Below are positions 1 through 43,973 of a stretch of 64,000 bases of DNA, piece after piece. The notes under the pieces were generated by a model. That model was given only the letters and a program-made list of their open reading frames with translations, was not told the origin of the DNA and did no database searches. The stretch spans positions 13,424,485 to 13,488,484 of the forward strand of contig NC_134027.1 in assembly GCF_964204645.1 (NCBI RefSeq), written 5' to 3'. The translations under genes and the position numbers were made by a program. Within the stretch, counting starts at the first letter, position 1; each line of letters opens with the position of its first letter. The DNA is from Tubulanus polymorphus (taxonomy: Eukaryota > Animalia > Nemertea).

Positions 1-735
1 CACTTTTATATAAATACGCAATTCAAGAAGATATTATATTTGAGATAAAATTTGCTCCTGTAAATGAAATTGTATTATCTAGCGTTGTTAAAGATATGGG
101 TTATAAATTATCGAATATATGTTTAGAATATGACACAGTAACTAATGAAAATATTGCTAGCACAATTCAAACTCAATACAATCAAGGATTTTCATTATTA
201 TATGATTATATTGATAAATTTAAAACTGTAACTATTAATGCAAATGATAAAATAATTAATGAGAATATTAACTTCCCAAGAAGATCTATTAAAGGTATAT
301 TAATATTTTTTACCATTGCAACACAACATATACTAATGGCGCAATAAAGGTAGATAATTAATATAATCCTGAAATAACAAAAGTAGAAATAACTATCGAA
401 GGAATAGCAAATAAAATATTATGTCAAGGAATGAGAATGACTGATCAATGGCCAGAAATTAGAAAACATTTTATGAATGAAAAAGTAAAATCATTTGAAA
501 ATTGTAATATTAATCAAATTGATTATTATACCGGCAATAAATATGCATTATGGTTAGAACAACAGAGGATAATTCATTACATGGTTCTGGAAAAAAACTA
601 CAGAACACTAAAGATGGAATACAATTATTCATGAAAAAGATAAGAGGAGACAAAAATTTTAAAATGCACATTTATATTATATCTGATGCCCAATTAAATA
701 TTGTAAATTCACAATTAGATAGTATTCAATATTAG
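1..735 (+). pseudogene. Major capsid protein C-terminal part, frameshifted
   Basis: ORF pieces 96-347, 431-634 and 550-735 are nearly identical to the C-half of intact ORF 43998-45245. Confidence 0.88.
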
Positions 736-765: not shown

Positions 766-1851
766 ATGGGAGGTAAAAAAACTACTAATACTAAAGAACA
801 ATATTTAAGAAATTTATATTACAACCCTGAGAGTTCGGTTGCTTATTCTTCTACCAAAAATATATGGCGCCAAGTAAAACAAGATAAATTAGATAAGATA
901 ATCCCACATTTAGTTAAATATAAAGATATAAATGAATTTATGTTAGAACAACCAACATATACAACACATAAAAAAATTGTTAGAAAATATAAAACTCGTA
1001 AAACTATGGTAAGTTATGTATATCAACAGTGGCAAGGAGATTTAATTGATATGAAAAATGTTAAGAAAGATAATGATGATTATTGGTGGTTATTGAATAT
1101 AATTGATATTTTTAGTCGTTATGTATGGAGTTTCCCACTTTATAGAAAAGATGCTGTACAAACATCAAATGTTTTAAGAAAATTTCTTTCGGATGATAAA
1201 CTAAAACCAGAAAAAATACAATTTGATGATGGAAAAGAGTTTGATAATTCACTTGTTCATGAACTCTTAGATAATCATAATATTAAATATTTTTCAACAA
1301 AATCGGATAAAAAAGCAGCAGTTGTTGAACGATTTAATAGAACATTAAGAACAAGAATGTGGAAATATTTTACAGCAAATAATACTTTTAAATGGATTGA
1401 TGTTTTACCAAAATTGATAGAAGGATATAATAATTCTTATCATTCTTCTATTGGAATGAAACCTATTGATGCTAGAAAACCTGAAAATGCTGAAATTGTT
1501 TGGAATAATTTATATGGAGCATTTCTTGTAGATGATTTTGGTGAACCTAAATTTAAAGTTGGTCTAAATGTTAGAATTTCTAAGTATAAAAAGATATTTG
1601 GTAAAGGATACGATCGAAATTTTACTAGAGAAATATATGAAATAAAAAAGGTAATAACAACAAAACCATATGTCTACTTTTATGAAGAAGAATTAAGTTT
1701 AACTACAGAAAATCTAGAACAAGAATATAAAATTGAAAAAGTATTAAAAACAAAAACTATTAAAAGAAAAAAATATTCTTTAGTAAAATGGGTTGGATGG
1801 CCAGATAAATTCAATGAATGGATATTGTCAAGTAAAATTAAAAATATATAA
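766..1851 (+). CDS. Retroviral-like (rve) integrase with C-terminal chromodomain
   Basis: WQGDLIDM, IDIFSRY, QFDDGKEF and VVERFNRTLR form the DDE core; YKIEKVL..LVKWVGWPDKFNEWI is the chromodomain. Confidence 0.95.
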   Translation: MGGKKTTNTKEQYLRNLYYNPESSVAYSSTKNIWRQVKQDKLDKIIPHLVKYKDINEFMLEQPTYTTHKKIVRKYKTRKTMVSYVYQQWQGDLIDMKNVKKDNDDYWWLLNIIDIFSRYVWSFPLYRKDAVQTSNVLRKFLSDDKLKPEKIQFDDGKEFDNSLVHELLDNHNIKYFSTKSDKKAAVVERFNRTLRTRMWKYFTANNTFKWIDVLPKLIEGYNNSYHSSIGMKPIDARKPENAEIVWNNLYGAFLVDDFGEPKFKVGLNVRISKYKKIFGKGYDRNFTREIYEIKKVITTKPYVYFYEEELSLTTENLEQEYKIEKVLKTKTIKRKKYSLVKWVGWPDKFNEWILSSKIKNI

Positions 1852-2460
1852 ATGAATGAGGAATTATTTATATTTGAACCTCATAATATGTTAATTTCTG
1901 GTGTAACAAATTGTGGAAAAACTTATTTTATATTAAATTTGTTAGAAACTGTTTATAAAAACTATTTTGATAATATAGTATTATTTTGTCCAACATATGA
2001 ATTTAATCAAACTTATGATAGAAATATTACTAGAAATAATAAATTTATTATATTAGATCCTAAAACAGTAAAAGAAAATTTAGATAATTGTATTAAAATA
2101 GCAATAGATATTTATAAAGGATCAAATACATTATTCATTATAGATGATTGTGCTAATCTACATGATTCAAAAGTTAGAGAAAGTGAGTTATGTTATTTAG
2201 CTTTTTCTGGTAGACATTTTGGGATAACAACATGGGTTTTAAATCAAAAATATAATTCAATTGTTAAAGACTTTAGGGAGAATATAAGATTTCTAATTTT
2301 ATTCTACAATAAAGATAGAAAATCGATGAAAAATGCACTTGAGGAAAATGATATTATTCCACATGATTTACATAATGAATATATGGATAAGTTGAAAAAT
2401 ATTAAAAGATCAAAATTACTATTTAGATTACAACACCCATTTAAATATGAATTTATTTAA
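1852..2460 (+). CDS. A32/FtsK-like genome packaging ATPase
   Basis: Walker A GVTNCGKT, Walker B LFIIDD, and GRH..Q motif; Polinton context. Confidence 0.92.
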   Translation: MNEELFIFEPHNMLISGVTNCGKTYFILNLLETVYKNYFDNIVLFCPTYEFNQTYDRNITRNNKFIILDPKTVKENLDNCIKIAIDIYKGSNTLFIIDDCANLHDSKVRESELCYLAFSGRHFGITTWVLNQKYNSIVKDFRENIRFLILFYNKDRKSMKNALEENDIIPHDLHNEYMDKLKNIKRSKLLFRLQHPFKYEFI

Positions 2461-2764: not shown

Positions 2765-3370
2765 ATGGTAGGTGAAAAGAAAATAAAATCTAAAAATGGT
2801 GATGTTTCAATTGAAAAAACTTTAGATGATTTAGGAATAACAGAAACAAAATTAACTCCAGATGATGGTGCTTTAAGTAATGTTACAACAAATAATAATT
2901 ATGAATATTATCTTTACTGTAAACATCAATTAGAAATATTAATAGCATCTGGAAAATGTAAAAATTTTGTCGGTAAAAATTTAACTTATAATGAATTAGA
3001 CACAATGAAATCAGATGAAATTATTAGATTATTTAAGATTTATGAAGCCGCGAGAACAGCTAGAATTAATGACGCGATATCAGAAAATGTAGTAAAAGGT
3101 TATAGTAAATTATGTAATTATATACTACCAATTGAAGATGAAAATAGATTATATTCCGATTTAAAAAATGACTATTTAGTTATGACTGAATTAAATAAAT
3201 GGATTGGATATTTATCATTTCAATTAGGCGGATTTATGACATTATTATCAACTGGAGTTATAACATTTTCAAATATTGAAAGTAAAAATATTTCTATAAT
3301 AAATGAGCGAGGTGGAAGAAGTGAAGGAATTAACTGTGAAGAAAAAACCGAGATCACAGAAACAAATTGA
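2765..3370 (+). CDS. Polinton conserved hypothetical protein with C-terminal hydrophobic segment
   Basis: TAAATG start; clear homologue in copy B at 26575-27139 (-). Confidence 0.8.
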   Translation: MVGEKKIKSKNGDVSIEKTLDDLGITETKLTPDDGALSNVTTNNNYEYYLYCKHQLEILIASGKCKNFVGKNLTYNELDTMKSDEIIRLFKIYEAARTARINDAISENVVKGYSKLCNYILPIEDENRLYSDLKNDYLVMTELNKWIGYLSFQLGGFMTLLSTGVITFSNIESKNISIINERGGRSEGINCEEKTEITETN

Positions 3371-3671
3371 ATGGTCTCGGCAATTAGGAATTAAATCACA
3401 AGAATATAAAAAAGCTGTAAAAGAAAAAATAAGTAATAAAAATGTTAATAAAAATAGTGAAAATATTGTTATTTCTACTCCTTCTAATGATAGAATATTT
3501 GATAAATGTCTATATTTTACAGTTGGATTTGTAATTGTATTCATTTTGATCGGGTGTAATTGGTATAAGAAATCAAATAAAATTCATGATATTTATAATT
3601 CTGAAACAACTGCTATCAAAAATGAAAATACTTCTGAAATTCCAAAATTGACAATAAAAAAAATGGATTAA
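3303..3671 (+). CDS. Polinton small basic protein with one predicted TM helix
   Basis: KKPRSQKQIEWSRQLG motif shared with 26397-26582 (-); hydrophobic LYFTVGFVIVFILIG; TAAATG start. Confidence 0.78.
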   Translation: MSEVEEVKELTVKKKPRSQKQIEWSRQLGIKSQEYKKAVKEKISNKNVNKNSENIVISTPSNDRIFDKCLYFTVGFVIVFILIGCNWYKKSNKIHDIYNSETTAIKNENTSEIPKLTIKKMD

Positions 3672-4145
3672 TATTTTAGAAAAAAGCGAAAACAAATAAT
3701 TGAATATCACCATGTGGGTGCCGTACGACACCATCTCACTACTTTTGTCTATCACTGTGTGGGTGCCGTTTATGGCACCATCTATGCGGAGCAATTAAAT
3801 TGTCCAGATAAGTCATTTCGGATTCTAGATATTCATTATTTTTATTAATTTATTTTGTTTTTACTTGAATATTGTATTACAGTCATTTCTTATTATTAGT
3901 TTTTTCTTAAATTGAAAGATGGCAGCACTGGGTGGGGTGTGATGCTAAAATGAATTATTTGAATTTGAATTTGTTAATCAATTAACATGGTAATCGATTA
4001 CTAATTTGATTAAAAATTATATCATAATTAAGTTAAAAATCCATAATTCATTTATCAGTTTTCATTCTTATATTCTTTTCATTCGGAATAATTTATAATT
4101 TCAAATTTCATATATTTTTTGAGCACCAACAACATTTACTTAGGT

Positions 4146-4452
4146 GTTTTAGCTAAGTATATAAGGCAATTCATTCAACCACTGGAGTGCCGCCGGGCTT
4201 GGCTTGCAGGGGCATTTCGAAAATGCACCTTTGTCCACCCTCCGTGGTTCTCCTTCAGTTTCGACTTTCGATCCTCCTTTCGGGGGTAAGGGGTTGATAG
4301 GAAATGCATTAGGCGCCTTTAATATAATGTGTTTCCTGTCAACCATTGAAGGAGAATTGGTGAGGTTTGGGTCACAGGGGTGTAATTAGAAATGCTTGGG
4401 GATAGGTATCTCGTGGCGCCTCTCAATAACGGGATGCTTATCCCCTAAAAAC
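4146..4452 (+). ncRNA. Putative structured non-coding RNA of Polinton copy A
   Basis: GC-richer island with nested stems (4239-4259/4345-4365, 4292-4311/4325-4344, 4398-4414/4429-4445). Non-Watson-Crick positions are mostly G-U on the + strand. Confidence 0.6.
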
Positions 4453-4760
4453 TCTGCGAGTCAAGTCGGGTGGTTTTGCTAAAACTTACCGTAAAAACAT
4501 TGAAATATTCCTTTTAATCACGAGAGAGAATGACTATCCTCCTGTCCTGTGTGTGTTGTATGTACTGCGTGCTTATTATATAACTGCTAGCTATCTAATA
4601 TAACAACAACGTTGTGCAACACCTGTTTGATTGATCAATATTCAAATGAAGCACTCTCTTATAATAACATGTAACAGATGTTTGACTGTATGATTGTAGT
4701 TGTTTATAAAACGACTAAGGTCATTTTGGATTCTAGATATTCATTATTTTTATTTCTTAT

Positions 4761-5087
4761 TTAATCAACAATTTCTAAATCATGATGACCGTCTTCATTT
4801 TTCCCATGATAGATTATTTTAAATCCTACTAAATCTTTCAATTCCTCTGTACTCAATGAAACCCATTTATCAGGTAAAAATACTTTAAATTCTCGCGATG
4901 TACTAACATTACAGTAGCTTAAATTTGCTGATACTTTCTCTCCATATTTAGTTTTTATCTTTTCTAATTTCAATATTTTATGTTCCATTTCTTTTGTAAC
5001 ATCAATTAACTTTTTTATTTCAAATTGTTTTTTTGCTGGTTTAATTCTGTTATTTATTGTTGCTAAGAATGCTTTTCTATCTCCCAT
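4761..5087 (-). CDS. Polinton terminal small hypothetical protein
   Basis: ATG lies within the TIR. Homologues at 45997-46321 (-) and 14119-14412 (+) share KYG..LPD..GKNE.GHH. Confidence 0.8.
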   Translation of the reverse strand: MGDRKAFLATINNRIKPAKKQFEIKKLIDVTKEMEHKILKLEKIKTKYGEKVSANLSYCNVSTSREFKVFLPDKWVSLSTEELKDLVGFKIIYHGKNEDGHHDLEIVD

Positions 5088-5171
5088 TTATTAGGAAAAA
5101 AATTACTTGTGGTGATGAGTGGTGTCTCGTCCTCTCGTCCTCTGGTATGAAAGCCTACTTTTCCAATTACT
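5080..5171 (-). repeat. Right terminal inverted repeat of copy A
   Basis: Reverse complement AGTAATTGGAAAAGTAGGCTTTCATACCAGAGGACGAGAGGACGAG..CCTAATAAATGGGAG matches the TIRs at 33705 and 57993. Confidence 0.92.
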
Positions 5172-8952: not shown

Positions 8953-11900
8953 CGCTTATATGTTTCCAGTCCCACTCACTTAAGCAGAGTGTACGCATTT
9001 AAGCCCATTTAATTTGGGATATACTATATGCCGAGTTGAATTGGCTTTAACACATATGATATCACACAAGCGAGACGGTAAGAACAGAGTATGTTTGGTC
9101 TGGTCAAGCGGAACGGTTACCCTTCCGTATGCTTCAAGCACTAAAGTTGGGTGGTTTTACAACAAAATCAATCCAATTCAAAAGCGATGTTGGTATATAA
9201 CTGTTCACTCATTGGATAATGGCCTTTCCATTTTTCATACAAGCTAAAAGTTCTCCACTTGGTCTCTCCAAATAGTTCAAATAATTTGTCCAGAACTGGT
9301 GAAATTAACTCACAATATAGAGTGCAGAAATTGAGTTATTTTCCCTGCCGTTACACCAGCGCTTGTACTCCAATTGCCATCTTGGATCACGTATGTATGG
9401 CCAACACATAACATCATAAATTGGTCCGCTAATATAGTGTTTTGTGGTATAGATGACACGTTTGTATGAATTTGTGCTGAACATAGATACTTTTTCAGGA
9501 CTTAAGGACCGAAAATTGGCAATATTTTTGATACAAACTGAGAAAGTATCAAAACATTTGAGAACGCGTTTCTTATGATTCACAGCTTGAACTAATTAAG
9601 CTTTGCAGGCGGTAAATGATATAATCGACTTTAATTCTAATAATGTTCTCCGGTAATCTTGGTACGATTTACATATCTTCTAACAGCTCCTCGTCGATGA
9701 CAACAACTCGAACAATCAGCTCTAAACTTTTTCGGTGAGTACAACATGGTTCAACAATCGCTTAAACGGTGTCGACGTAGACAATGGCGCGGAAATAAGT
9801 CCTGATGATTGGGAGAAATCTGCTGTTAGGCCTTCTGATAACTGAGACCCAGAGATGTTGGGTACTGTAGTGCGTATTATTAACATCCACCTGACAAAAT
9901 CAGAAACAATAAAAAATGTATCAATATAGTTTCTGCCTAATCAGAACACAAATAAAATAAACATTGTCGGGGCTTGTCAAGTTAGGATATCTAAGGCCGG
10001 CACTGGAATGATCTAGTTACCGTTGGCGTTGCATACCAACAAATCTAAGTCAAGAATAATTTTGGCAGACGTTAACGCCCGGCCAAGCCATTTTCATTCA
10101 GCAAAAGCAGACCGTCTCCCAGGCAAAATGAATTAGGTTGAAATTTGAATTTGAAATAAATTATTATTAGAAAGGCACACAAATGCGGTTGAAAAAGAAT
10201 CACATGCGACTAAAATTACGATGTATACTTTGATATCGATGCAATATACCTCGGTTACACATAAGCCTAGGTAAATGACGGTTTGCCGCTAGATAAATCG
10301 AAAGAAAACACCAGCTAATGTCACAGTTGTTAAAATTGTTCTAAGAATGTTGCGGGCTCGACTTTTACGGAATATATCATTCAGTATTCCATCAAAATTG
10401 GACCCAGCATTGCCACACTTAACTGGGTTCTTATTCTGGATTACATAATTCTATCATATTCAGCATCGGTAAAAATTCTGCGATTTCTTGTTCATCTAAA
10501 CTGGTTGTTTGGAGAATACCCCAGCTGCTGAGGGTATTCCTTAAACCAGTAACCAATCAGAGCGCAGCTTTCTCACAATGACGTGGAAAGCGGGATTATG
10601 TAGGCCGTGGCCTGAACAGTGATTATTTGAAAGAGCTTACGTGATCTCCGCATAATAAAAGTTTTAATTTTCGGGATGGAGCATATACGTATTCGCGAAA
10701 AATAGTGAATTTTGACTGTTTACTGCGTAACTGGAACGATCACCGTTTCACCTTCTTACCGTTTTATCTATGCTTGCTAACGTTTTAAATGGCGCAAATC
10801 GTATAACGAAAGTGTACGGTACAAAAGACGAGTTAACGTGCACGGCAATTTGTGAGTAAGTTATTTCCGGAAAGGTCCCCAGAGCCATTATTGAAGACTC
10901 CGTCGACATACAACGAAGTCAAAAATTGGGATAATTTGTTGTTGTTTGCTTAGTGCTATTATTGGTGTATTTTTTGCATTCTCGCAATTTCGATAAAGGT
11001 GGGCCTCGGACCCATTTAAATTCGTGGAACCCTAGTTCATTCCGGAATTCTCCTGAAAACCTGGGCATGCAGCCACTAAAGGATGCCCTAGAGAAGGGAC
11101 GGTATTCCATAATGTTGAAGTTTGTACTGTAATCCCTCTGGCCGGCTGGTTTTATTCTCTTATCCTTTTATCCTCGCATACCGCTACCGGTTTCACTGTC
11201 CCCCAACATAGCCTGACATATATTTCCAATATCTCTTATCTTATTATTTTGTTCTGGTCTAAAACAGCCGAATATAACCCGGTAGCTTTATGGACTGCCA
11301 TACAGCCAAGTTCGACTGCTTTATAGTGGCAAGTTTCTCTTTGAGTTCCCCCAAGACCAAATTGTCGAATTTTATGTTTCTCTCCATTTGGAAAAGCTCA
11401 TCTTCCAAGAGAAGTATCCAAGAGTGAGTTGCTTCAGCTTTAGATTCTCGTTTCCCTAAAAGAGCGCATCATTCAAACAATGAATCGGGCGACAAAGACA
11501 TAACGATCATGAAAACCTATCGAATTATTCTTAACAACCCAATTTAATAAAAAGTTTTCATGGCGATTTGCAAAAATGAGTGATGTCATTTTCGTCACGA
11601 TTCATGATTATAATCAAGGGTAGCAAATTTGCCCCCCCCCCCCATTAAAGGGTGAAATGGGTGCATTATCAGAACCAAATGTTTTAAAACGGTCACTTGT
11701 CAGTAGACCACAGCTACTATAGAAAACCGACTGAATTGAAAGGTAAACTATTTCAGAGTGGCTGTTTTGAAATGTATACTACTGGAAAAGTAGCCGATAT
11801 TGTTAATTGCTTATTGTTCTCAAGTAGCTACTAAGTAGAAGTAGACCTTTGAGTTCAAAAGTGCGATAGACATGTGCTTAAATTCAGCCTTTCATTCTGT

Positions 11901-14489: not shown

Positions 14490-16784
14490 ATGGTAGAATT
14501 AAAAGAATACAGAATATTTGTTGATTCTAGAAGACTTACAAATTATAAATCACATAATTTACTAGTACAATTAGATAGAGAATTTGAAAATTGTGTAGAT
14601 TTAAAATTAGTAAATGTAAGTTTATGTAATTCTTTTTATAATATATCGGAAAAATCTATTGAACATAGAGTCTTTTTAATTCATGATAGAAATAAAAATA
14701 GATGGTTTCATCTTTTTCTTAAACCAGGATTATAATATGTAATAGATGAAATCCAAGTGACGGACGCTTCGTCACAGCTTGATGATTTAATTTTTTATAC
14801 TAACAAATCATTTCGATTCAAAAACAACCTCGTGTATTTTGATATTGTGTATTGTGTATGTATTGTGTATTTTGAGTATATAACGAAATACACTCAGAAT
14901 ATTGTCAGTGACTAGGAACACAGAGAAAATTAATTGTAGTCAATCCTATGGAACTGGAAAGTAACTTTGATCAATTTTATTTCAAATTGAAATTGTACTT
15001 TGGCCCGAAGCATATTAATTCTTAGATAAAACTTGGGAAAATGAAAAATAATGCCAGAGGGTTGGCGGAGGGGGAAAGACAATTAAACTGCAACTCTAAG
15101 GTTTGATTCATATCTGGTTATAGAAAATTTGGGCTTTTAGGATTAGGAAATTCAATTTTCTGAAAAAGACTTGACCCAATTTCCCAACTGAATTGTTTAT
15201 TTATTTTAATTTTTGGTCTTTGGCTTACCCGTGGCTCTGTTTATTACTGCTAAAAACTATTTCGATTTAGATTAGTGTATCAAGAATTATTCAATGGTTT
15301 AAACCACTTTGCAAAACCACTATATAACCGACATTTCGAAGTGAAACTGAGTCAGAATGAGACTGGTTTTTGCAAGATTGAAGAATTTTTGACCTGGTTG
15401 TTGATTTAGAAATTAACACCATCCGAAAAAAGGACAAGAGGGTTACTACAAACTTTTTGATAACGGAGAAAAATGGAAGACGCGTTGAAATGCATCAATC
15501 GGAAAATTATTTTCTGCCAGAAAGAATCGAATTAATCAAGATGGAAAATTCAAATGTCAATACAAAAATTGATTTCTCTTACGAAAAATACTTATTTGTT
15601 TCTAATCATCCGATAATGTCGAATACCGGGAATCTACGGCTCAAGTAAATAAGCAGTGCACGTGGCTAGCGGTACCGAATTCCTTATTTGGTGTAAGAAG
15701 GGGTGGAGACTAAATGTTGTTGCCGACCGCGATGTTGGGGCTGCTGCTCGAGCGAGACCGATCGGCGATCCGCCGCGCTGTCGTGAAATTTTAAGCAAAT
15801 CGTACGACTCAGTCTAACACGACTCGCTGTTTTAGAGTCATTTAATTTGATAAGATAATTAAATATTTCAGTGCTGTGGCTGGGGTCGACTGCTGTACGT
15901 GCGCGCTAGAGCGTAATTCTCCGGGATTCGAACCCGCGCGCGATTGTTATTATGAATTCGCTCCAGTTGCTAAAGGAATTTCAGCTATTTTGAACTCGTT
16001 CGATCAACGCGGTTCATTGTTAAACGATTCAACGATCCAATCTTGGTCGAAATTTCACGAAATAAATACATTCTGAAATCACCCGATCCAAAAGTTGCCG
16101 GATTTTAGTTACTTCGCTGCCGGATTTTAGCGTGACGTAATTCTACTTCCGATTTCCCCATGAACTTCAAACCGGACGTACCCTGACGTCATTTTTTTCT
16201 GACTTTGTCAGTAAGTCAGATTCGGTTAAAAAGACACTTTCTAGAATCCACATATACACGTTTATCAAAGGGACGTCGTCCGTCTATAATTTAGAAACAT
16301 TAGCTCAAGAAATTAATAAAAGAGCACGCTCAAGAATGGGCGCATCTGCTGGATTTGGATTAAGACTGATTAAAAGTGATAGCTCTGATAAAGTAAGAAT
16401 AAAATTAGGCAATTTCTAGTTAAAAAACCTTTAGCTAAAATTTTAGGAATAACTCCAGGTGTAAGCATACGTAATGCTGATGCTACACCAAATATAATGC
16501 CTTTTACACACTTTTATATTTATTGCAATTTAATTGATCCTACAAAGACATTTGAAGCAACTAAAGACACAATTTGTAATTCTGGTTTATTTTATATTCT
16601 ACCATTAAAAAATGTTAAAGAATTTGGAACACAAATAAATTATAATTTAGCCGAGTGCGATTTCAAACCATGCATTCCTCAACTTAATAATTTTAGATTA
16701 GAAATTAGAAATCACAATGGATATTTGATTGATTTAAATAATTTTCCTGTAATCAATGAATTAGTTATAAGATGTAAAGAGTAA
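14490..16784 (+). pseudogene. Minor capsid (penton) gene interrupted by a 1.55-kb insertion
   Basis: 14490-14734 and 16285-16784 match 38845-39606; C-terminal FYIYCNL..LEIRNHNGYLIDLN pattern. Confidence 0.8.
14735..16284. mobile_element. Unclassified non-autonomous insertion in the penton gene
   Basis: Absent from copy C (GGTTATATAATTTAG); flanked by TA; hairpin GTGACG..CGTCAC near left end; minus-strand B-box GGGTTCGAATCCC at ~15923-15935. Confidence 0.75.
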
Positions 16785-22100: not shown

Positions 22101-22619
22101 AAAATGAATGGGAGTTAGAAGAACATGAAAAAGAATTAGGTGAAATAGAAAGAAATAAAACGTGCCAATATTGTAAACTGAACCTGTTGATGAAAATACA
22201 TCTAATTAATGTTTATAAAAATGTGAGTATGATACCATTGTTAAATAACCCAAAGAAATATATCCAATAGTTTGATCCTAAAACTAAACAATATTATATA
22301 TTCTATAAGTTGTTATTTGATAAATTATTAGCTTATGCAGAAGATAATCCTAAACAAATATATAAATTATTATATTTTAGAAATATGGATTTAAGTTATC
22401 TAATGAAAAATTTTGGATATCATTTTGATTTCGATTTTGATGAATACTTTGAAAAATTAAGAAAAGAAGCTTAGATATATCCTTATTAAAAACTGATGCT
22501 TCAACTAAAATAAATAAATCTACCTAAGAATTATTATGAATTAGATATAAATAAAGATGATTTTATAAACTTATTAGAAACAAAATTAGAATAATCATTA
22601 TAAAAATATTTATGATATC

Positions 22620-22749
22620 TATGTACTAGACGTACGAGTAAGAATCCAAGAATCCAAGAAAGTAAGAAAGGTACGAGAGGTACGAGTAAGAATCCAAGAA
22701 TCCAAGAATTCTTACTTTCTTACTTTCTTACTCGTACGTCTAGTACATA
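22620..22749. repeat. Palindrome with 25-bp perfect arms and internal 7-8-nt repeats
   Basis: TATGTACTAGACGTACGAGTAAGAA (22620-22644) / TTCTTACTCGTACGTCTAGTACATA (22725-22749); degenerate second copy at ~22880-22980. Confidence 0.9.
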
Positions 22750-23084
22750 CATATATAAATTAGTTAATCTAAGTATAGAAATAGTTATAATATAATCTAT
22801 TTTTAATTTTTATTAAGTGAAAACATATAATTTTTTTCATCTTTATATTTTTAATTATTATTTAACTAATTCATATACCCAAGTACTAGAGGTTCGAGTA
22901 AGAATCAAAGAATTCTTACTTTCTTACTTTCTTACTTTCTTGGCAAGAATCTTGGTTTCTTATTCGTACGTCTCGTACTTAGATATATATAGTTATTTAA
23001 AAAAAGGGGTTTTAGGTATTAAGGTATCTAATACGTACCTAATATGTATCTAATACATAAATGCTTAAAGTAGCTTATTTTATA

Positions 23085-27460: not shown

Positions 27461-27694
27461 GATATTGTTTTTTTTAATACTTTTTATTTAAATTAGGATT
27501 CAATATCTCACTTTTTTGTCTATCTATAGGAGCGGTAACTATAACTGTCCAGATAAGTCATTTCGGATCCTCGATAATAAATCCTCAATCCGAAAAGTAA
27601 TTTAACGAAAACGCTGGGTGGAATTACTACTTCATAAACACATATATTTATTATGGAAATAGTAGCGATCGAAGATAGAATAATTGAGAAAAAT

Positions 27695-33704: not shown

Positions 33705-33797
33705 AGTAATTGGAATATCAGGGGTTCAGATCAGAGGACGAGAGGACGAGAGACCACTCATCACCACAAGTAATTTTTTTTCCTAATAAATGGGAGA
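33705..33797 (+). repeat. Left TIR of copy C
   Basis: Reverse complement of 46314-46406. Confidence 0.97.
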
Positions 33798-36700
33798 GAA
33801 TGAACACCAACCAGAAAATAGTAATGTTAATAAAAATCAATATTATTGCCAATGTTGTAAAAAATACGTCGATACATCTAATAAAACACGACATGAAAAA
33901 ACTGCAAATCATATAAAAAATGTAATAGATTTTGAAACTCCAGAAAATTCCAATGAAAGAAAAGAAAGATTAGAAAATATGAATGTAGATGAAATAAAAT
34001 GTGAAGTTTGTAATGAATTTATAGTAAAAAGGAATTATAATAGACATCTCGAATCACAAAAACACCATCAAAATTTGAGTAATAATGTTTTAGGAAAAGA
34101 TAAACCTCAACAAGTAAAAAAACCAACTTCAAAAACTAAATCCATTTCAAATAAACCTTACATGGAAAATGTTAGAAATTATATCGATTCACTAGAAATA
34201 AAAGATACAATTAAAATTTTAGAAACATCACGCAGTAAAATTGGACCTGCAGCTATTATATTTAGATTTTTTATAGGTACAACAATAGAAGATTATAGTA
34301 AATTTAATGAAATAATAGAAAAAATACTAGATTTGATAACAGATGTTGAATATCCAAAAATTAGTATCTCTGGGAAAGTAAGTTTTTTAAAGTCAGGAGA
34401 TAAAATGGATTATAATATTCAAACACACTCTGAAGAAATAATTTCAAAAACACAAATAAAAGAGAAGTTAGAAAAAATATTTAATGAATTTAAACGTCAT
34501 ATTGAAGAAAGATATTTTGAGGGTTCTGGCTTAACATTGAATGAAATTATATATTTAGATTTAAATGTTTATAATACAAAAAGAAATAAAACATCAAAAA
34601 GTAATAAAATGTTTAAAAATGATTCAAACTTTACAACAGAAAAGGATATCAAAGCATCATCTTATATTAAATTACCATTTACAACAAAAGCAGTAATAAA
34701 TGTTCAAAATGAAGATAATAAATGTTTTCTATGGTCAATTATTAGTTGCTTACATCCAACACAAGAAAATGTGCGTAGAATAACAGATTATCGGAAATAT
34801 GAAACATTATATAAAATTGATCAATATCCAGTAACTATAAAAATGATTCCTAAAATAGAAAAAGTTAATAATTTAAAAATAAATGTATTCGAATTAATGC
34901 AATTACCAAAGACAAAAGGTGAAAATATTAAAGATTATACATTGGAAGCTTTATATTTAACAGAATATTATGATGATGAAAATGCTATAGATTTGTTATA
35001 TTACAAAAAAGATGAAAATGAACATTATATGTGGTTAAAACAAATTGATTTATTCTTTAGAACAGAAAGTGATCACCATAATAAAATGTATCTATGTAGA
35101 AAATGTTTATCTAAATTTATGACTGAGAATACATTATTAAAACATAAAGAATTATGTGAGAATAAAGATTTTTGTAAATTAATAATGCCAACAGAAAAAG
35201 ATTATAAATTGAAATTTACTAATCATAAATTGAAGTTGAAAATGATGATAAAACTGATTGGGAAAGCGCAATTGCGAGTTTAAAAGATGAAGCACCAATT
35301 GGTTATTTCTTTGTAGTTGATTTAGAATATCCTGATAAAATAAAGTTTAAAACAAGAAACTTACCTTATTGCCCAGAACATTAAACTGTAGATGATAGTT
35401 ATTTAAGTGAATACCAGAAGAAAATAAAACCGAAAGATCATGTTTTTACAGAAAAATTAATAATAAATTCATATATATTGTTCATTATAGAATGTTAAAA
35501 TTTTATCTAAAACAAGGAATGAAATTAAAGAAAGTACATAGATATATTGAATTTAATCAATCGAAGTGGTTAGAAAAATATATAGATTTCAATACTCAAC
35601 AGAGAACCATATCAAAAACAGATTTTGAAAAAGATTTCTTCAAATTAATGAATAATAGTTTTTATGGTAAAACATGTGAAAATATTAGAAATAGAAATGA
35701 TATTGAATTAGTAAATAATTCTGAAAGATTAAGACATTTACAATCAAGCCCTAGACATTTAGGAAATAAAAGATTTGAAGATTATTTAACAGCAGTTAAA
35801 TTAAAAAGAACGTCAATGAAATTTAATAAACCTATATTCATTGGTTCAACTGTTTTAGAAGTATCAAAATTATTAATGTATGATTTTTATTATAATGTTG
35901 TACAACCACTTTTTGGGGAAAAGCATATTGAAATATTATATTTTGATTCTGTTACAGCTGACACCCCAATATTATTAAAATGTTATGATAAAATATTGAT
36001 AAGAAGAATTTCAGAAATAATTCCAAAACAAAATGAATGTTATATTTCATATGGTGAAAAAGAATTAATACAAATAAATGGTTTAATGGATGTTTGGACA
36101 AGAAATGGATGGAAAAAATTAAAGAATATTATTAGGCATAAAACAAATAAGAAAATCTATAGAGTTAGAACTAAATTAGGATTTGTAGATGTTACAGAAG
36201 ATCATAATTTAATTAAACGAAATGGCGATGAAATAAAACCAACTGATAAAAAAATTGGAGATGAATCATTACATAAAAGATTTTTCCAAAGAATGAATCA
36301 TATGCCATTTGATGAAATAATTGATAATATTTATAATATAGAACCCGAAACATTAGAAGAAAAAGAATATTTTATCAAAGGATTTCATGGGAGATGGTTC
36401 AGCAGGTGTGTATAATTATGTTTGGGGTAATAAATATTGTTGGTATTTATGCAATCAAGACTTAAAATTATTAGAAAGAATAAAGAAATTCTGTGAAGAA
36501 GTTTATCCAAATAAAACATTTAAAATCATAGATGTTATGAAATCATCGCAATGTTATAGAATACATGTGAATAATCCTAAAGATTTTGCTATAAAATATA
36601 ATGACGAATTCTATATTCATGCAATAGTGAAAAGTAATACTTCAACAAAAGAAAAGATAGTTCCAGATTATGTATTAAATGCAAAAAATAATTTTAGAAA

Positions 36701-37465
36701 ATGGTTCTTCATTGGATTCTACGCAGCAGATGGTCCAAAAAGTTTCAAAAACCGCAAAACGATATCTTAAGCTCAAAAAGGAAAAGTTGCTATATCAGGA
36801 TTGAATATATTATGCAATTCATTGGGTTTTAATATGAATATTGGATTGATTAAATCTAAACCAAATTGCTTTAATTTAAGCCATGTAGAAAATGAGTTAA
36901 CAGAAGAAGTTTAGGATTTATTTGAAATATATAACCCATCAGATTATGTTTATGATTTATCAACTGAAGATGGTACATTTAACTGTGGATTTCCATTAAT
37001 AGCAGTCAATACTGACGCCTACATACTAAAAATCAAGACAAATGACATAACAAAGACTTAAAAACATTAAAACATCATTTTGATTTTAGCAATTATCCCA
37101 AAGATCATGAACTATTTAGCAATGATAATAAAAAGATTCCTGGTAAATTTAAAGATGAACTAGGGGGTGATGAAATGATTGAATTTTTTGGGATAAGAAG
37201 TAAAATGTATAGTTATAGAACAAAAGATCATGAAGCTAAAAAGTTAAAAGGAATAACAAAACATGTGGTTGATAAACATATAGAATTTCAAGATTATATA
37301 AAGTGTTTATATAACTCAATTGTAATGAAACATAAAATGAATTGTTTAAGATCAGAAGATCACGAGATGTACATTAATGAAGTTGAAAAAACTAGTTTAA
37401 ATCCATTTGATGATAAAAGGCATATTTTAGATGATGGTATAAAAACATTACCTTATGGTTATTAA
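33790..37465 (+). pseudogene. Protein-primed DNA polymerase B with intein; disrupted
   Basis: N-terminal Zn fingers, SSYIKLP..INVQNEDNKCFLW, KLMNNSFYGKT, split YFD|TDA, SKMY, DDKR. About 1.37 kb deleted at 35232 relative to copy D. Confidence 0.95.
35948..37010 (+). other. Intein with LAGLIDADG homing endonuclease in pPolB motif C
   Basis: Starts SVTADTP; block B VTEDH; GF(F)MGDG and GFYAADG; block F YVYDLSTEDGTF; ends LIAVN followed by Thr. One frameshift and one stop. Confidence 0.95.
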
Positions 37466-38776
37466 AACATAAAATCAATATCATCATACTCGAAATCACT
37501 ATTGGCTTCTTCATTTTCATTTAATTGTTTAGGTTCTTCTTCCATTTCATTTTTCTCATTTAAATTAAGTTCTATCTTGTTCCACATTTCATCTCGCTCT
37601 CTTTGTTTCTTTTTGTTTGTTAATTCATCAAATGGAATTATAATATGTAGGTTTAAATAATTTACAATCTTATTTAAAAAGAATTCATAATAATTAATTG
37701 AATCTGTTATTCTATTTTCCAAATAATACATTAATATTTGTTTGAATATTTTTTTTTTATTTTTCATATCTTCTGTTAATTTAGGTTTTTCATAATAATC
37801 GTTAAATAATAAATATAAATACATTTTCTTTTGTTTTGTGTTAAATGTTGACGGAATAATTGTTTTTATAATATCTTTTTTTGTTATTTCACCATTTTTA
37901 TTTTCTATCATTTTCATTTTTTCAAGCCATTGCATATATTCTGGTGTATGATCTTCTATAGAAAATATTTTAAAAATTTCATCAAGATAATTTAATTTTG
38001 GATCTATGAGAAAATTTCTAGTTTTTTCTTCACCCAATAAATTCTTTTGCCATCCACATTCATTACAAAATAACACAGTACCTTCTTGCCTTAAGGTCGC
38101 ATAACTACATTGTGGGCATTTTTGTTTATAATTTATTGGTAATAGATCTTCATTAAGCTCTTGGTATTTTCTTACGTTTTCTTTATGTTTTATTGTTCTA
38201 TTATGTAGATTTGAATTACTTGTTGTAATAATCAATTTACAATATTTACAATAATGTTTTTCTTGTTAATTCATTATATTGTTTTTCTAACTTTTCAACT
38301 GTTTCTTTATTATCTGGTAACGTTTTCTCATATTTTATGTTTTCTAATAAATTATCTTTTCTTTCATTGAATTCAGTTTCAAATTTATTAGAAATTTTAT
38401 CTATATGTGCTTTACGAAATTGATGATTCTCCCAATCTTCTGTATTTTCAGGGCTATATTTCATTCGACAAGGCTCACAGAAATGATCTTTTATATTATC
38501 CTTATCATAGAATAAGAAAGGTCTTTTCCAAATACCTTCAGGTTCAACTTCAACAGAATTACTATTACTTTCATTACTATCAACATTAGCCGTTGCGCCA
38601 TTAATTCTACACTTCTCTGAATGTTTTTTAACATAATTTCTTGAGAATGATTTATTACATTTTGGACAGTTTAGTTTAGGGGGTTTATAATTTTCATCAT
38701 GTTTTTTCACATGTCGAGCCATATTACTTTTTCTTAGAAGTTAACCACAAATTTCGCATGGTATCTTCTCATCCAT
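37462..38776 (-). pseudogene. Multi-Zn-finger protein with C-terminal poxvirus A2/VLTF3-like late transcription factor domain
   Basis: CPQC..FCNEC ribbon, RNFLIDPKLNYL, IFKQIL..SINY(Y)EFFLNKI, EMWNKI. TAAATG start at 38776; one stop and a 2-nt frameshift (in frame in copy D). Confidence 0.75.
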
Positions 38777-38844
38777 TTATTAAGGAAAAATTTTATTAAA
38801 ATTAATTTTTAGTGATGAGCGGTAATTTTTTCATGTTATAAATA

Positions 38845-39606
38845 ATGGTAGAATTAAAAGAATACAGAATATTTGTTGATTCTAGAAGGCTTACAAATTA
38901 TAAATCTCATAATTTACTAGTACAATTAGATAGAGAATTCAAGAATTGTGTAGATTAAAAATTAGTTAATATAAGTTTATGTAATTCTTTTTACAATATA
39001 TCGAATAAAACTATTGAACATAGAGCCTTTTTAATTTTTGATAAAGGTAAAAATGAATGGTCCTATATATATTTAAAACCGGGGTTATATAATTTAGATA
39101 CATTAGCACAAGAAATTAATAGAAAAGCCTGGCACAAGTTAGGTAGTAGTTCTGGGTTTAGTATTAGATTTTTAAAAAGTGAGAGTTCTGATAGAATAAA
39201 GATAAGGTTGTCTAATAGTGAAAAACATAAATTTATGGTAAAAAAACCTATAGCTAAACTGTTAGGAATTCTTCCAGATAGATCTTTTAAAAATATTGAC
39301 GCTACTACACCAAACTTAATACCTTACACACATTTCTATATTTATTGCAATTTAATCGATCCTACAAAAACATTCGAAGCAACTAAAGATATAACTTGTA
39401 ATTCTGGTTTACTAAACATTTTACCATTGAAGAATGTTAAAGAATTTGGAACGCAAATAAATTATAATTTAACAGAATGTGATTTCAAACCATGCATTCC
39501 TCGTTTTAATAATTTTAGATTAGAAATTAGAAATCATAATGGATACTTAATTGATTTAAATAATTTCCCTGTAATTTATGAATTAGTTATAAGATGTAGA
39601 GAGTAA
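38845..39606 (+). pseudogene. Minor capsid (penton) protein, one frameshift
   Basis: IFVDSR..LCNSFYNIS N-terminus; FYIYCNL..ILPL..INY..LEIRNHNGYLIDLN C-terminus, typical of Polinton pentons. Confidence 0.8.
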
Positions 39607-39623
39607 TTTTTTTCACTATATAA

Positions 39624-39965
39624 ATGAATATAACTGTTGGACCGAGTTTATGTTTTGGGTTTGATTTTAAACATGGTAAAGAAATGAGAATTAAACTAAA
39701 TGATGTAATTACTGATATAAAAAGTAAATCATTTAACAATGAATCAATGATTAATAAAGAAAATTATAATATAGAAAAAGTAATTGATTTAATTAAATCA
39801 CCTTTAGAATATTATGAATTAAATGAAGATGGAATTATTGATGATATTAAAAACATATTAACCAAAATATATGATAATCATAAAAGTAGTAATGAAATAA
39901 ATGTTGAATTAATCATAAATAAGTTAACTAAATATTTTGATGATAGTAATTTTTTTGATAAATAA
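39624..39965 (+). CDS. Polinton hypothetical protein
   Basis: Conserved with 16801-17133; TAAATG start. Confidence 0.8.
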   Translation: MNITVGPSLCFGFDFKHGKEMRIKLNDVITDIKSKSFNNESMINKENYNIEKVIDLIKSPLEYYELNEDGIIDDIKNILTKIYDNHKSSNEINVELIINKLTKYFDDSNFFDK

Positions 39966-40187
39966 ATGAGTGATAATAAGTGGATAATAACTGGATTATA
40001 TAATGGCGCATTACTATCAGTTGGAACTGTTGGTTATTCAATGGTATTGAAAAAAGTATTTAAAATGGGAAGTGTTAATGTTGATAGATTTGATATAAAT
40101 GATATTTTAAAATTAACATTAGCAGTTACTTTATCTAATTTAACTATTGATTATTTAGAAAAACAAAAATATATTCCTCCCATATAA
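39966..40187 (+). CDS. Small hydrophobic Polinton protein
   Basis: Two hydrophobic stretches; homologue at 17141-17387. Confidence 0.78.
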   Translation: MSDNKWIITGLYNGALLSVGTVGYSMVLKKVFKMGSVNVDRFDINDILKLTLAVTLSNLTIDYLEKQKYIPPI

Positions 40188-40211
40188 ATGCGTAATTATT
40201 TTACTAAATAA

Positions 40212-40634
40212 ATGGCTTCTGCAATTATAACTATTATAGGATCGGCTATTGTTAACGCTTTGGCATTTACTGGTGGCGGATATTTATTTAAACATATTGA
40301 TAAAAATAGTTCATTAGGAGAACAAAGAAGACATAACTTAGCGTTAGAGAAATACAATAAAGCTGCAGAAGAATATAGAGAAAAGGGACAAAACTATATG
40401 GATTACATCAATAAAGAATTATATGGTCAGAAGATTTCACATAGAGATTTTCAATCAGTTGATGATGCAATGAGTTAATATAACTCAGTAACCAATAAAG
40501 AAAAATTACATCTACATAAACCTACAATATCAGATTATTATACCCCAAGTAAAGAACAACAGAAATATGAAATAATATGGATTTTAGGTGGAACAGTTAT
40601 TGTTATATTTGTTGCTTATAAGTTTACTAATTAG
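40212..40634 (+). pseudogene. Membrane protein with N- and C-terminal hydrophobic helices (frameshift at ~40477)
   Basis: MASAIITIIGSAIVNALAFTGG; the homologue at 17388-17810 shows the C-terminal continuation. Confidence 0.75.
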
Positions 40635-40654
40635 TAATTTTTTTTGCTAAATAG

Positions 40655-41088
40655 ATGGAAGATAAAGTTGATAATATTGATATTATTCCTCATGATATAA
40701 ATAAAACTAAACTAAAAACATATTTAGAAAAACAAATATTAGAATTTGAAAGTGACTTAAAGATAAAAAAGAAAAAATATTTAAAAAGTAAAATTATATA
40801 TTATTTGATTATAAGTGGTTCGGTTACAATTAGTTCTGTAATAACATTTCTAGCAATATTCAGTCCATTAACACCTTTAGCTATATCAATTGGTGTATTA
40901 GGATTAAGTTCAAGTGTTTTAACTGGTATAAGTTCAAAATTAAATATAAAAAGTAATAAAGAAAAAATTAAAACTAATATAAAGAAATTAATAAATTAAA
41001 GAATACACTAGATTATATAATAAGTTTAAATGGTCATATAACAGTTGAAGAACAAGATAAATTATTAAAAGAATTAATAAATTATTAA
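40655..41088 (+). CDS. Two-TM Polinton protein (probable frameshift near 40980)
   Basis: IIYYLIISGSVTISSVITFLAIF and LAISIGVLGLSSSVLTGI; homologue starts at 17836. Confidence 0.72.
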
Positions 41089-41104
41089 TTTTTTAATTAT
41101 ATAA

Positions 41105-42496
41105 ATGGTAGATAGTTTTCCAAAAGCTTTCCAATATAATAAATCAATTAAATATAATATTCCAGCAATAGATTTTAATAAAGATATTACATATAGAAAT
41201 GAAGTTTTAGATTCATTAACTAATTTAGAAATTTATGTTACTGAAACTAATAATTTTAATGCAAAGATGGAAAATATATTTCATGTATATTTAATTAATT
41301 TTAAAAAATTGAAAGATGAAAAACAATGGTTATTAAAATCTAATATGAAGTATTGGCAGAACCAATTAAATTTTGCTGTTTATTGTGCAACAACAGGTTG
41401 TGGAATTAGTTGGAATGATCATTTGAATAATTCTAAATATAAATTAATTCAAAGTTTATTTAGATTTCATACATACTTTCAAATAAGAATAATATTAAAT
41501 GAATTAGAGTGCGCTTTACCAGGATCTAGGTATTTTAAAGAATTAGATAATAATATTAATTTAACAAAGTTTTATAAAATTTGTAATGAATTTAATATAG
41601 ATATAAATAATTCTGATTTTAGAACAAAAATTGGAACAATAAGATCACTTCCTTGCCCTAAAAAGACTGCAGAATATTGTGCACTTCCCATACCATCTAA
41701 TAGTTATCTTTATAATATCTATAGTAATAAATTAGGTTATGGTAAAATAGAAACTAAGGATTTAGAAACATTAAATTTCAATAAATTACCGACATTTTAT
41801 GATAATTTAAAACAAGAAAACAATAATGGTTGGGTTTATTTCATTTTAGAAAATAATGAAGGTTTTACAAAATCAGGTATACAAAGAATAAATCAATCTA
41901 TTAGAACTTATTTGATATGTATTTTAGGTGCGCAAGTTGAAACAAGATCCCCGATAATTGGAAATTTGAATACATCATTTGATACGCAGAAACAATTCAA
42001 AGTATTATTTGAAGATTCAATTCATAATGATAAAAATAGATCGATTCCAGAAAACATTGTAAGATATCAAAATTATTTAGATACATCACATATTAGATTA
42101 AATTATTGTATAGGCCCTAATCTATTCATTATTTCTAATGATTTAGTATTAAAGATGGGAAACATAATTGGTTACAATAATCTAATTAAAACTGCAACAA
42201 TAGATAATTCATTTGGATTAAATGATATAAATAAAAAGATTATTACTTCTCCAAAATTAATGGAAGGTGAAAAAAATAAAAAACACATTCAATCAACAGA
42301 AACTAAAACTAAGAATATCAAATTGGATAATGATTCCAAAATAAAAGATTACAATACTACAGAAAATATTAAAATTGATAATATTCAACATAATATAATT
42401 AAAACTGATAATGATAATAAATTACATGAAAATACTAAATTAGCTTTAACTTGTATAGGAATTGTTATAGGAGGAATATTATATTTTGAATTTTAA
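41105..42496 (+). CDS. Polinton conserved hypothetical protein with C-terminal TM anchor
   Basis: Intact 463-aa ORF with WQNQLNFAVYCATTGCGIS and YLICILGAQVETRS; decayed homologue at 18040-18713. Confidence 0.85.
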   Translation: MVDSFPKAFQYNKSIKYNIPAIDFNKDITYRNEVLDSLTNLEIYVTETNNFNAKMENIFHVYLINFKKLKDEKQWLLKSNMKYWQNQLNFAVYCATTGCGISWNDHLNNSKYKLIQSLFRFHTYFQIRIILNELECALPGSRYFKELDNNINLTKFYKICNEFNIDINNSDFRTKIGTIRSLPCPKKTAEYCALPIPSNSYLYNIYSNKLGYGKIETKDLETLNFNKLPTFYDNLKQENNNGWVYFILENNEGFTKSGIQRINQSIRTYLICILGAQVETRSPIIGNLNTSFDTQKQFKVLFEDSIHNDKNRSIPENIVRYQNYLDTSHIRLNYCIGPNLFIISNDLVLKMGNIIGYNNLIKTATIDNSFGLNDINKKIITSPKLMEGEKNKKHIQSTETKTKNIKLDNDSKIKDYNTTENIKIDNIQHNIIKTDNDNKLHENTKLALTCIGIVIGGILYFEF

Positions 42497-42512
42497 TTTT
42501 TTTATGATATAA

Positions 42513-43973
42513 ATGGATGTAGAAGGTGGAGAAGATATTGGAATGGATAATTTTGATGAACCTGGTATAACTGATGAACAACCACCTGATTTTGATGAAA
42601 CAAGTTTCAGTAACGAAAATGAAACAGCATATAATTCTAATTTAGCAAGACCTGATACTAATGAATATGTTAATAAAGCACGTTCAAGATTGGACATTGA
42701 AAATGAAAATCCAGATTTAATGAAAAAAGAACTAGAATATGACGAATTAACTGATAAATTCAAACCAATATTAGAAAAATCTGGATTCAATATAACAAAT
42801 AAAGGTGTGAATTATTTAGTAAAAGATGTGAAATATTTAAATGGTGATTATTATTGGCATTTGAAAGATTACTATTATTTTAAGATATCTTCTAATAAAA
42901 GTCTCGATAAAATGATAACAAAACCAACTTTAATTAAATTAGAACAATCTAGAATTAAGAAAATCAACAATGATGTTATAACTGATGTTACAGAACAAGA
43001 GATAAATCAAAATAGAATAGAATTTAATCGAAGAAATAATGATTTTTTGAAGATAATTAGTGAAAATTTAGAACCAGAAACAATTCCTAAAGAAGATATA
43101 ACTTCCAAAACTAGTAAACTTAAATCAAATAAAGTTCAAACTGAAAAACTTTTACCGAAGGGATTACTTGATGCAACAAAACAAGAATTAGAAGATTTAG
43201 ATATATTTTCTGGTAAAGCAATAAGAGAAATTGAAAGTATAAGACATGCATCTGATAAAATTGCGCATGAAAAAGAAATAAGAGATATTAAAATTAGATT
43301 TTTAGAAAAAGAATTAACTGATAAAAATAAAGAAATAGAACAATTAAAGTCTGATTTAGATCATCAAGTAATTAATGAAATAGAATATAGGCAAAAAGAA
43401 TTACGTTTAGAAAAAGAAAAAGATGATTTAGAATATAACATAGAATTACAAAAAGAAGAAATTAAATTATTATTAAAATCATATGATTATAATATAAAAA
43501 GATTAAAAGATGTTTTTAAAAGATATCTAATAAAACCAAATTCTAAAATATCATTGAAAGATAGAATAGAATTATTATTTAAGTTTGAAGGAATCACAAT
43601 TCTTTCAATTCTAACAGCTGTAACTATGTTATTTACAACAATAGGTTTAGCAATATCAAATGCTTTGAAATCTACCCCTACTCCCAATAAACCAGATAAA
43701 CCCCCGAATGATAATAATTCTATACAAGATAAAGTTAAAGATGGTTTAAAGAAATTAGTAAAATATTTATGGGAACTATCTAAAAAATCTGCTGCAGCAT
43801 TGCCAGGAGTTATTGCATCAATTGTTGGTTTTATATTGAAATCTGCAGGAAACATTATTAACTTTGCTGCTGAACATATTATTTTATTTTTAATTACAGT
43901 TGTAAGTGCTATCATTTTTGGGTTAGTGAATATGATATCAAAAAGATATCAAGAAAAAAATGATAAAAAATAA
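42513..43973 (+). CDS. Coiled-coil protein with C-terminal hydrophobic helices
   Basis: Intact 486-aa ORF: acidic N-terminus, long heptad region, two to three hydrophobic segments; homologue at 18732-20196. Confidence 0.85.
   Translation: MDVEGGEDIGMDNFDEPGITDEQPPDFDETSFSNENETAYNSNLARPDTNEYVNKARSRLDIENENPDLMKKELEYDELTDKFKPILEKSGFNITNKGVNYLVKDVKYLNGDYYWHLKDYYYFKISSNKSLDKMITKPTLIKLEQSRIKKINNDVITDVTEQEINQNRIEFNRRNNDFLKIISENLEPETIPKEDITSKTSKLKSNKVQTEKLLPKGLLDATKQELEDLDIFSGKAIREIESIRHASDKIAHEKEIRDIKIRFLEKELTDKNKEIEQLKSDLDHQVINEIEYRQKELRLEKEKDDLEYNIELQKEEIKLLLKSYDYNIKRLKDVFKRYLIKPNSKISLKDRIELLFKFEGITILSILTAVTMLFTTIGLAISNALKSTPTPNKPDKPPNDNNSIQDKVKDGLKKLVKYLWELSKKSAAALPGVIASIVGFILKSAGNIINFAAEHIILFLITVVSAIIFGLVNMISKRYQEKNDKK

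Follow-up and report, generated by a model that had tools for sequence, protein, structure and literature searches.

A structured RNA element with twin GGCGCC loops in a Polinton family of Tubulanus polymorphus

A previously unannotated RNA element

In a 64,000-nucleotide stretch of the Tubulanus polymorphus genome (hereafter the window), we identified a structured RNA element that belongs to a Polinton family; it is real and had not been annotated before. Folding delimits a predicted non-coding RNA of ~289 nt on the + strand (4189..4477) that closes into a single fold with 108 pairs, including 20 G·U, and that has no Rfam or tRNA match. Its layout is coherently that of an RNA polymerase III (Pol III) gene, and kissing between its two main loops is predicted. 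Covariation among copies within one species shows, with high confidence, that the structure is under selection on the + strand. Taken as a whole, we read the island as a Polinton non-coding RNA, likely made by Pol III, that would form dimers or chains through its GGCGCC loops and serve as a decoy for dsRNA sensors, a reading that we place just short of an even chance.

Polintons have been described as protein-coding elements, and the island, if transcribed, would be the first Polinton non-coding RNA gene found. A search of the full-text literature, which reached a minority of subscription journals, returned no Polinton non-coding RNA, and such RNA is unmentioned in the main text of PMC8502044, PMC11071296, PMC11131425 and 10.1101/2023.08.22.554363. 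The island suggests that Polintons and the antiviral RNA sensing of invertebrates are in conflict at the level of RNA. That selection acts on an "endogenous" element suggests recent activity, and a size of 289 nt permits direct testing.

Genomic context of the RNA element

The island is set ~700 bp in from the right end of its host Polinton. Upstream of it, on the + strand, are the 3' end of a likely major capsid gene (3..347), a retroviral-type integrase with a chromodomain (766..1851; Pfam rve above and Chromo below the cut-off), an A32-like packaging ATPase (1852..2460; Pfam Pox_A32) and two overlapping unknown ORFs (2765..3671), of which ORF 2765-3370 gave no usable match in an atlas search. 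The likely capsid gene has a full copy at 43998-45245 (DNA 5-1354 matches 44513-45869 at 95.6%), and its neighbours in the atlas are viral; in some of these, 10-24% of members carry capsid families. Downstream of the RNA gene, before the right end, the - strand carries a conserved unknown ORF (4761..5087). The right terminal inverted repeat (TIR; 5080..5171) matches both ends of a sister copy at 33706-46406.

Polintons/adintoviruses are defined in 10.1101/2023.08.22.554363 by an integrase, pPolB, packaging ATPase, capsid, TIR and a 5-8-bp target site duplication (TSD). The host element fits this definition: rve and Pox_A32 occur in the copy described here, DNA_pol_B_2 in a related copy, and both terminal repeats with a 6-bp TSD in the sister copy, while the capsid gene is a lead only. 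That sister copy is without the island. The equivalent of position 1354 is joined straight to that of 4633, a 3.3-kb internal deletion, so that a single event removed the island, the ATPase and part of the integrase from the sister copy.

A conserved intergenic motif of ~35-60 bp recurs across Polinton families (3798-3846, 4720-4754, 27543-27576 and 45956-45990 in the window; 2433-2496 in a metagenomic relative, L004). After the ATPase gene, several related elements carry AT-rich, strand-symmetric palindromes or repeat arrays of unrelated sequence (2450-2760 and 22600-22990; L006 3033-3105, L008 3550-3640 and L011 810-1000), possibly a DNA-level origin or processing signal. Directly after the last ORF, at 3700-3783, lie two 25-bp and two 13-bp direct repeats, each of them GC-richer, that are divergent among copies. 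Another Polinton copy differs from its sister by an insertion at 14735-16284, the GC-richer part of which (15600-16200) is unrelated to the island. The polymerase gene runs into an intein-like stretch at 61555-62427 (Pfam Intein_splicing E 6.5e-6, below the curated cut-off), and a second polymerase copy (35492-36415) has a corresponding intein-like stretch with no Pfam match; inteins are unmentioned in the Polinton papers checked.

A closed, strand-asymmetric fold

An earlier note on this DNA, made from the sequence alone, had singled out two hairpins, and both are as it described them. H1 (4292..4344, + strand) has 20 contiguous base pairs and H2 (4398..4445, + strand) has 17, with exactly three non-Watson-Crick pairs in each, all of them G·U on the + strand. 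Both loops (4312-4324 in H1, 4415-4428 in H2) begin with the palindrome GGCGCC and end with AATA, which bears out the twin hexamers and the shared motif. The stem said to enclose H1 (4239-4259/4345-4365) pairs at 19 of 21 positions, and the island is indeed GC-richer than its surroundings (GC 49.5%, versus 18-31% in the element's other 300-base bins up to 5100). When compared with shuffles on both strands, the originally proposed span of 4146-4452 folds at -134.2 kcal/mol with z -8.19 on the + strand and z -3.35 on the - strand. Folded alone, H1 has z -7.1 (+) and -4.5 (-), and H2 has z -5.5 (+) and -1.3 (-).

The pattern GGCGCC-N3,4-AATA, which was chosen post hoc, occurs twice in 64 kb where 0.04 occurrences are expected, and 0 of 100 shuffles reach two. 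Among 14 hairpins with at least 15 contiguous pairs and a 6-20-nt loop, collected from the window and eight related loci, H1 and H2 are the only ones with a palindromic hexamer in the loop.

The span of 4146-4452 was off at both boundaries: 4146-4188 is promoter-like upstream DNA, and the fold extends to 4474-4477. Delimited as 4184-4477, the sequence folds as one closed domain of -152.6 kcal/mol (z -11.84) on the + strand, compared with -89.9 kcal/mol (z -4.24) on the opposite strand. This asymmetry of -62 kcal/mol far exceeds that of 219 other windows (-1.4 +/- 9.4, maximum 35). On the + strand of 4189-4477 there is no ATG ORF longer than 24 aa.

The predicted domain consists of a 22-bp terminal stem, a three-way junction with H2, a ~40-bp arm and a four-way junction with H1. 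Terminal stem P1 (6 + 16 bp, 6 G·U) pairs 4189..4211 with 4452..4474. Next come P2 and an internal loop, with the 5' strand of P2 and the GAA side of the loop in 4212..4223 and the other side of the loop and the 3' strand of P2 in 4385..4395. The long arm, P3-P5, has its 5' strand at 4224..4259 and is predicted to pair with 4345-4384. H1 sits flush on P5, with no unpaired base at 4344/4345, and H2 sits on the three-way junction with linkers of 2 and 6 nt. Uninterrupted stems are at most 23 bp long and wobble-rich throughout this predicted fold. Two small junction hairpins precede H1 (4261..4286, comprising 4261-4271 and 4273-4286; mean pair probability 0.71 and 0.79, respectively). Of the two smaller hairpins that had been pointed out before, the one at 4273-4286 thus stands (pair probability ~0.8), whereas the one at ~4206-4234 does not (z -1.8 alone) and gives way to long-range pairs in the final fold once the chain passes ~4400.

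Variation among copies largely preserves the fold

Copies of the island were sampled through raw DNA reads of the same species, and they fall into about two subfamilies, so that few independent events are represented. Summed read depth is ~490-785 over the island and ~90-440 over its flanks, and a depth in the hundreds means that the island is multicopy rather than private to this locus. The second subfamily is ~16% diverged and accounts for about one third of reads. Within 4280-4470, 32 positions vary in at least 6% of reads, and 15 of these fall in the stems of H1 and H2. We assigned 13 of the 15 stem variants to the second subfamily, ten because they occur at the exact depth of one X4 contig and three because they occur at sums taken to include it.

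These linked variants affect ten base pairs and break none; both partners change in three of the pairs and a single partner in the other seven. Random placement of the same substitutions left all pairs intact in 15 of 400,000 trials (P about 4e-5). The three double-compensatory pairs are all in H1 (4297/4339, 4301/4335 and 4304/4332), and the changes in H2 are five one-sided ones, all via G·U. Including two variants outside the linked set, every changed pair in H1 and H2 still pairs (12/12). All nine one-sided changes run via G·U on the + strand, six of them simply resolving G·U pairs of the window's own copy. Compensatory and G·U-routed changes among copies, together with the strand asymmetry of the fold, support the earlier suggestion that selection acts on the RNA fold of the + strand.

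Outside the hairpins, 13 variable rows were scored (rows 4356-4358 and 4364 were left out of pair scoring since their partners do not align). Four lie on predicted pairs, of which three hold and one, at 4395, breaks a junction-closing pair. The variant at 4457 keeps its pair in P1, and those at 4374 and 4376 keep theirs in the long arm. Two positions of the window copy carry a minority letter. At 4367 the majority letter creates an additional pair, 4238/4367; at 4386 it is found in 498 of 651 reads of set X5 and in all X4 contig depth, and places AGUA opposite GAA in the internal loop next to P2. This arrangement is what we take to be a loop E or sarcin-ricin-like pattern, and most copies accordingly have a loop E-like internal loop.

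Changed positions are somewhat rarer in the loops (1/27) than in the stems (13/74; p=0.064), and none of the 12 positions of the loop hexamers varies at or above 6% of reads (p=0.12). Stronger conservation of loops than of stems is thus borderline. Three outcomes had been named beforehand as counting against a selected RNA, and none occurred: the copies covary, the fold is stronger than that of shuffles, and a MITE insertion was rejected on the strand-asymmetric fold and on the depth of the island in the reads.

Promoter- and terminator-like ends

The ends of the fold coincide with candidate transcription signals. A TATA box, the likely promoter, lies on the + strand at 4158..4165. Relative to 4189, where the terminal stem and its pairing begin, it covers -31 to -24, with the TATA start 31 nt upstream of that base. 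The last paired base is the first T of a T4 run (4474..4477, + strand), a likely Pol III terminator and the sole T4 between 4151 and 4511. Neither signal is significant alone: there are six TATA-like words against 5.6 expected in this AT-rich window, so such words are common by chance, and T4 is absent inside the unit in 0.19 of shuffles. Their weight comes from coinciding with the fold ends. The TATA box, terminal stem and T4 end, all three absent from the earlier note, make the island look like a discrete transcription unit.

In type 3 Pol III genes, a TATA element lies about 30 nt upstream and a T-run marks the end (PMC8362101). The island has this spacing if its start is placed at the first paired base, and a TATA box at -31 is compatible with Pol II as well. 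The patterns used for internal A and B boxes gave 0 matches in 4181-4480, a search that degenerate boxes may escape. A block upstream of the fold (4100..4188, + strand) is common to both subfamilies, with read depth of ~690 at 4133-4173, and it is more strongly conserved than the beginning of the RNA, since 147 reads align up to 4188 and then diverge. Type 3 genes also carry a proximal sequence element at about -50 and a distal one at about -200; by position alone, a proximal element would fall within this block at about 4123-4142. An imperfect inverted repeat, 4143-4153/4478-4490, flanks promoter and terminator, with a related word at 3934-3950, and is possibly a DNA-binding site.

Judged by eye, the two terminal-stem strands of the second subfamily look complementary and end in T4. 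The same subfamily has, also by eye, a T4 about 25 nt after the start, which could cause premature termination by Pol III. Two X4 contigs seem to be without the end T4 (agreement 0.77).

Relatives of the island

A scan of metagenome contigs returned eight related loci of 1.1-11.5 kb, all partial elements, and none of these partial loci has GGCGCC or the island. One of them is ~80% identical in DNA over integrase and ATPase and is without the island. The closest relative, L004, has a deoxynucleoside kinase gene (10340-10981) where the RNA gene sits here, which suggests that this position is a variable cargo slot; the island may be lineage-specific. Among viral contigs, protein queries found no relative, the twin-loop pattern matched three loci that are all unrelated tandem or coding repeats, and further loop patterns had 0 matches. 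Prokaryote genome contigs gave no match to the protein query and three bacterial loci that match the pattern and lack the hairpin, and phage records gave no match. Within these viral, prokaryotic, phage and metagenomic collections, no homologue outside this species was found.

Comparison with Rfam, which the earlier note had recommended, identified no family at the gathering score and only chance-level matches (E 2.6-9.2), and there was no tRNA match and no 5S head. Several candidate identities were rejected. A tRNA-, 5S- or 7SL-derived SINE lacks support because there is no recognisable Pol III head or internal promoter. For telomerase RNA, the single telomere-like hexamer lies inside the stem of H2 and is changed at 4447 in the second subfamily. 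For a tRNA-Lys primer-binding site, at most seven bases match the site.

A proposed mechanism and its alternatives

We propose that Pol III would produce a transcript from ~4189 to the T4 at 4474-4477, driven by an upstream TATA promoter of the U6 type, and on the anatomy of the locus we lean towards the existence of such a transcript. The two loops would then kiss through six G-C pairs, giving a helix that stacks on both stems. Each hexamer directly continues the 5' strand of its stem, and the 7-8 nt after it end in AAUA; this linker would cross the minor groove of the kissing helix, as in loop 3 of a pseudoknot. In pseudoknots, the strand that crosses the minor groove is of similar length and make-up. 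Both hexamers are predicted to be unpaired (probability 0.91-1.0), and their best partner is each other (-11.7 kcal/mol), while the best non-loop site (-7.4 kcal/mol) is mostly paired. Since both are predicted to be free and the RNA offers neither of them a comparably strong alternative, kissing is plausible. With moderate confidence, based on loop geometry, we expect a kissing helix with a linker that crosses its minor groove.

Given the layout of the junctions, the two loops likely face opposite ends of a rod, which would favour pairing between molecules. The wobble-rich helices of ~20 bp would bind proteins of the Dicer, PKR/OAS or ADAR type but fail to activate them; argued from analogy with VA RNA, such binding is possible rather than probable. 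A self-assembling Pol III RNA might further build rings, filaments or condensates that sequester dsRNA sensors or scaffold packaging, a more speculative step that we regard as rather unlikely.

The best-surviving alternative keeps the kiss and moves it within one molecule. H1 would fold back at the four-way junction and meet H2, producing a compact monomer shaped like a paperclip, whose pseudo-continuous helix of 43 bp would bind protein. The lengths of H1 (20), the kiss (6) and H2 (17) add up to those 43 bp, which nearly matches the arm between the junctions, with its ~40 bp and internal loops. Exactly two loops with a palindromic hexamer are present. A kiss in cis has no need of identical palindromes, yet neither hexamer varies at or above 6% of reads, and the flush stacking of H1 on P5 also speaks against folding back. 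A three-way junction of this type would turn H2 towards the terminal stem, again opposing contact in cis. Dimers or chains are favoured over the kiss in cis because the loops lie at opposite ends and because identical palindromes are needed only between like molecules, and we consider the paperclip monomer unlikely.

In another alternative, the island would be a host non-coding RNA gene or a small non-autonomous retroelement captured by the Polinton, its fold a relic of a former job. Two 35-bp direct repeats on the + strand (3812..3846 and 4720..4754) bracket a 908-bp segment that holds the RNA gene, and four reads from three starts join 3819 to 4728 across it. Island depth above that of the flanks could mean that some copies sit in other contexts, and metagenomic relatives are without the island. 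However, the flanks themselves are at hundreds-fold depth, the repeat is the recurrent Polinton motif that occurs singly at 27543-27576 and in L004, and the sister copy retains 4633-4720, which lies inside the segment. The absence of an Rfam family, tRNA or 5S head also counts against a captured gene, and we judge this origin quite unlikely.

As a virion or packaging-motor RNA, the island would form loop-loop rings that sit on the A32-like ATPase or scaffold the assembly of the capsid, in the manner of phi29 pRNA. Two loop-loop contacts per monomer permit rings, and the RNA gene is 1.7 kb from the ATPase gene; against this, relatives with 75-82% identical ATPases include island-free contigs, though these are partial. 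We know of no packaging RNA in double-jelly-roll viruses and view this role as improbable.

Similarly improbable is that the fold acts in cis within a longer Pol II transcript, such as a lncRNA or the 3' UTR of the upstream ORFs, or forms in single-stranded DNA during replication. The island is downstream of ORFs on the same strand, the TATA position suits Pol II, and folding with DNA parameters is also strong (z -7.6). But poly(A)-signal-like words occur at 3653, 3794 and 4009 with none between 4010 and 4800, and the fold closes exactly between TATA+31 and T4. The G·U routing of changes and the loop E-like motif are features of RNA, and the family's AT-rich DNA palindromes fold alike on both strands, unlike the island. 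It is very improbable that the island is a dumbbell primary microRNA in which H1 and H2 serve as precursors. A likely Pol III unit that holds two long hairpins would suit this reading, and viral Pol III miRNA clusters exist (PMC12498455), but the stems change (13/74) while the loops hold, the reverse of the miRNA pattern, and H2 has just 17 bp.

Comparison with known systems

The earlier note had offered adenovirus VA RNA, phi29 pRNA and retroviral dimerisation loops as possible analogues. VA RNA proved the best match in design and fails as a family, while the other two gained no direct support.

As in the dimerisation initiation sites (DIS) of HIV-1, MPMV and MMTV, a 6-nt GC palindrome is predicted to be exposed in a hairpin loop. 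GGCGCC itself has been proposed as a dimer contact in the primer-binding sites of MPMV and MMTV (PMC3884649, PMC4264320), which supports the loop chemistry by analogy and not kinship. The island departs from the retroviral sites in having two loops per molecule, in a loop of 13-14 nt that opens with the palindrome on its 5' side, and in being a free-standing unit of a DNA element, for which there is no RNA genome to be packaged.

The resemblance to phi29 lies in assembly. Two predicted loop-loop contacts per monomer could build rings as in pRNA, and the Polinton, like phi29, has a protein-primed polymerase and a packaging ATPase. In phi29 pRNA, the two loops are distinct, complementary and non-palindromic, and the motor belongs to a different virus lineage; pRNA binds the prohead and the ATPase, and packaging depends on it.

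In promoter layout, the island resembles the genes for U6, 7SK, RNase P/MRP RNA, Y RNA and the EBV EBERs, in which a TATA element about 30 nt upstream precedes a structured RNA that ends in a T-run. Unlike these type 3 Pol III genes and EBERs, it exists in many copies on a mobile element, and it has no match to their Rfam families.

The closest likeness in design is to VA RNA I and II, which share with the island a paired 5'/3' terminal stem ending in four U (here the predicted P1 and the T4 at 4474-4477) and wobble-rich helices of ~20-22 bp. The literature describes VA RNA as a small viral non-coding RNA whose terminal stem serves Exportin-5 and Dicer (PMC7589676), and VA-I as having a 22-bp apical stem with three G·U pairs and one A·C, in which wobbles lower sensor activation (PMC6599070). 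VA RNA also inhibits PKR and competes for Dicer and Exportin-5. The island differs in having an upstream TATA box and no internal A or B box matches, twin palindromic loops, a loop E-like motif and no Rfam match. A GGGU-ACCC tetrastem and a central pseudoknot mark VA RNA; here the two tetramers occupy 4237-4240 and 4369-4372, in reverse order and not paired in that way in the predicted fold. VA RNA is ~160 nt long and the island 289 nt. Membership of the VA RNA family fails on the internal boxes, on size and on the Rfam model. The host Polinton is itself adenovirus-like (PMC8502044). If transcribed, the island would give a lineage closely related to adenoviruses its own functional equivalent of VA RNA, one with another type of promoter and a new architecture.
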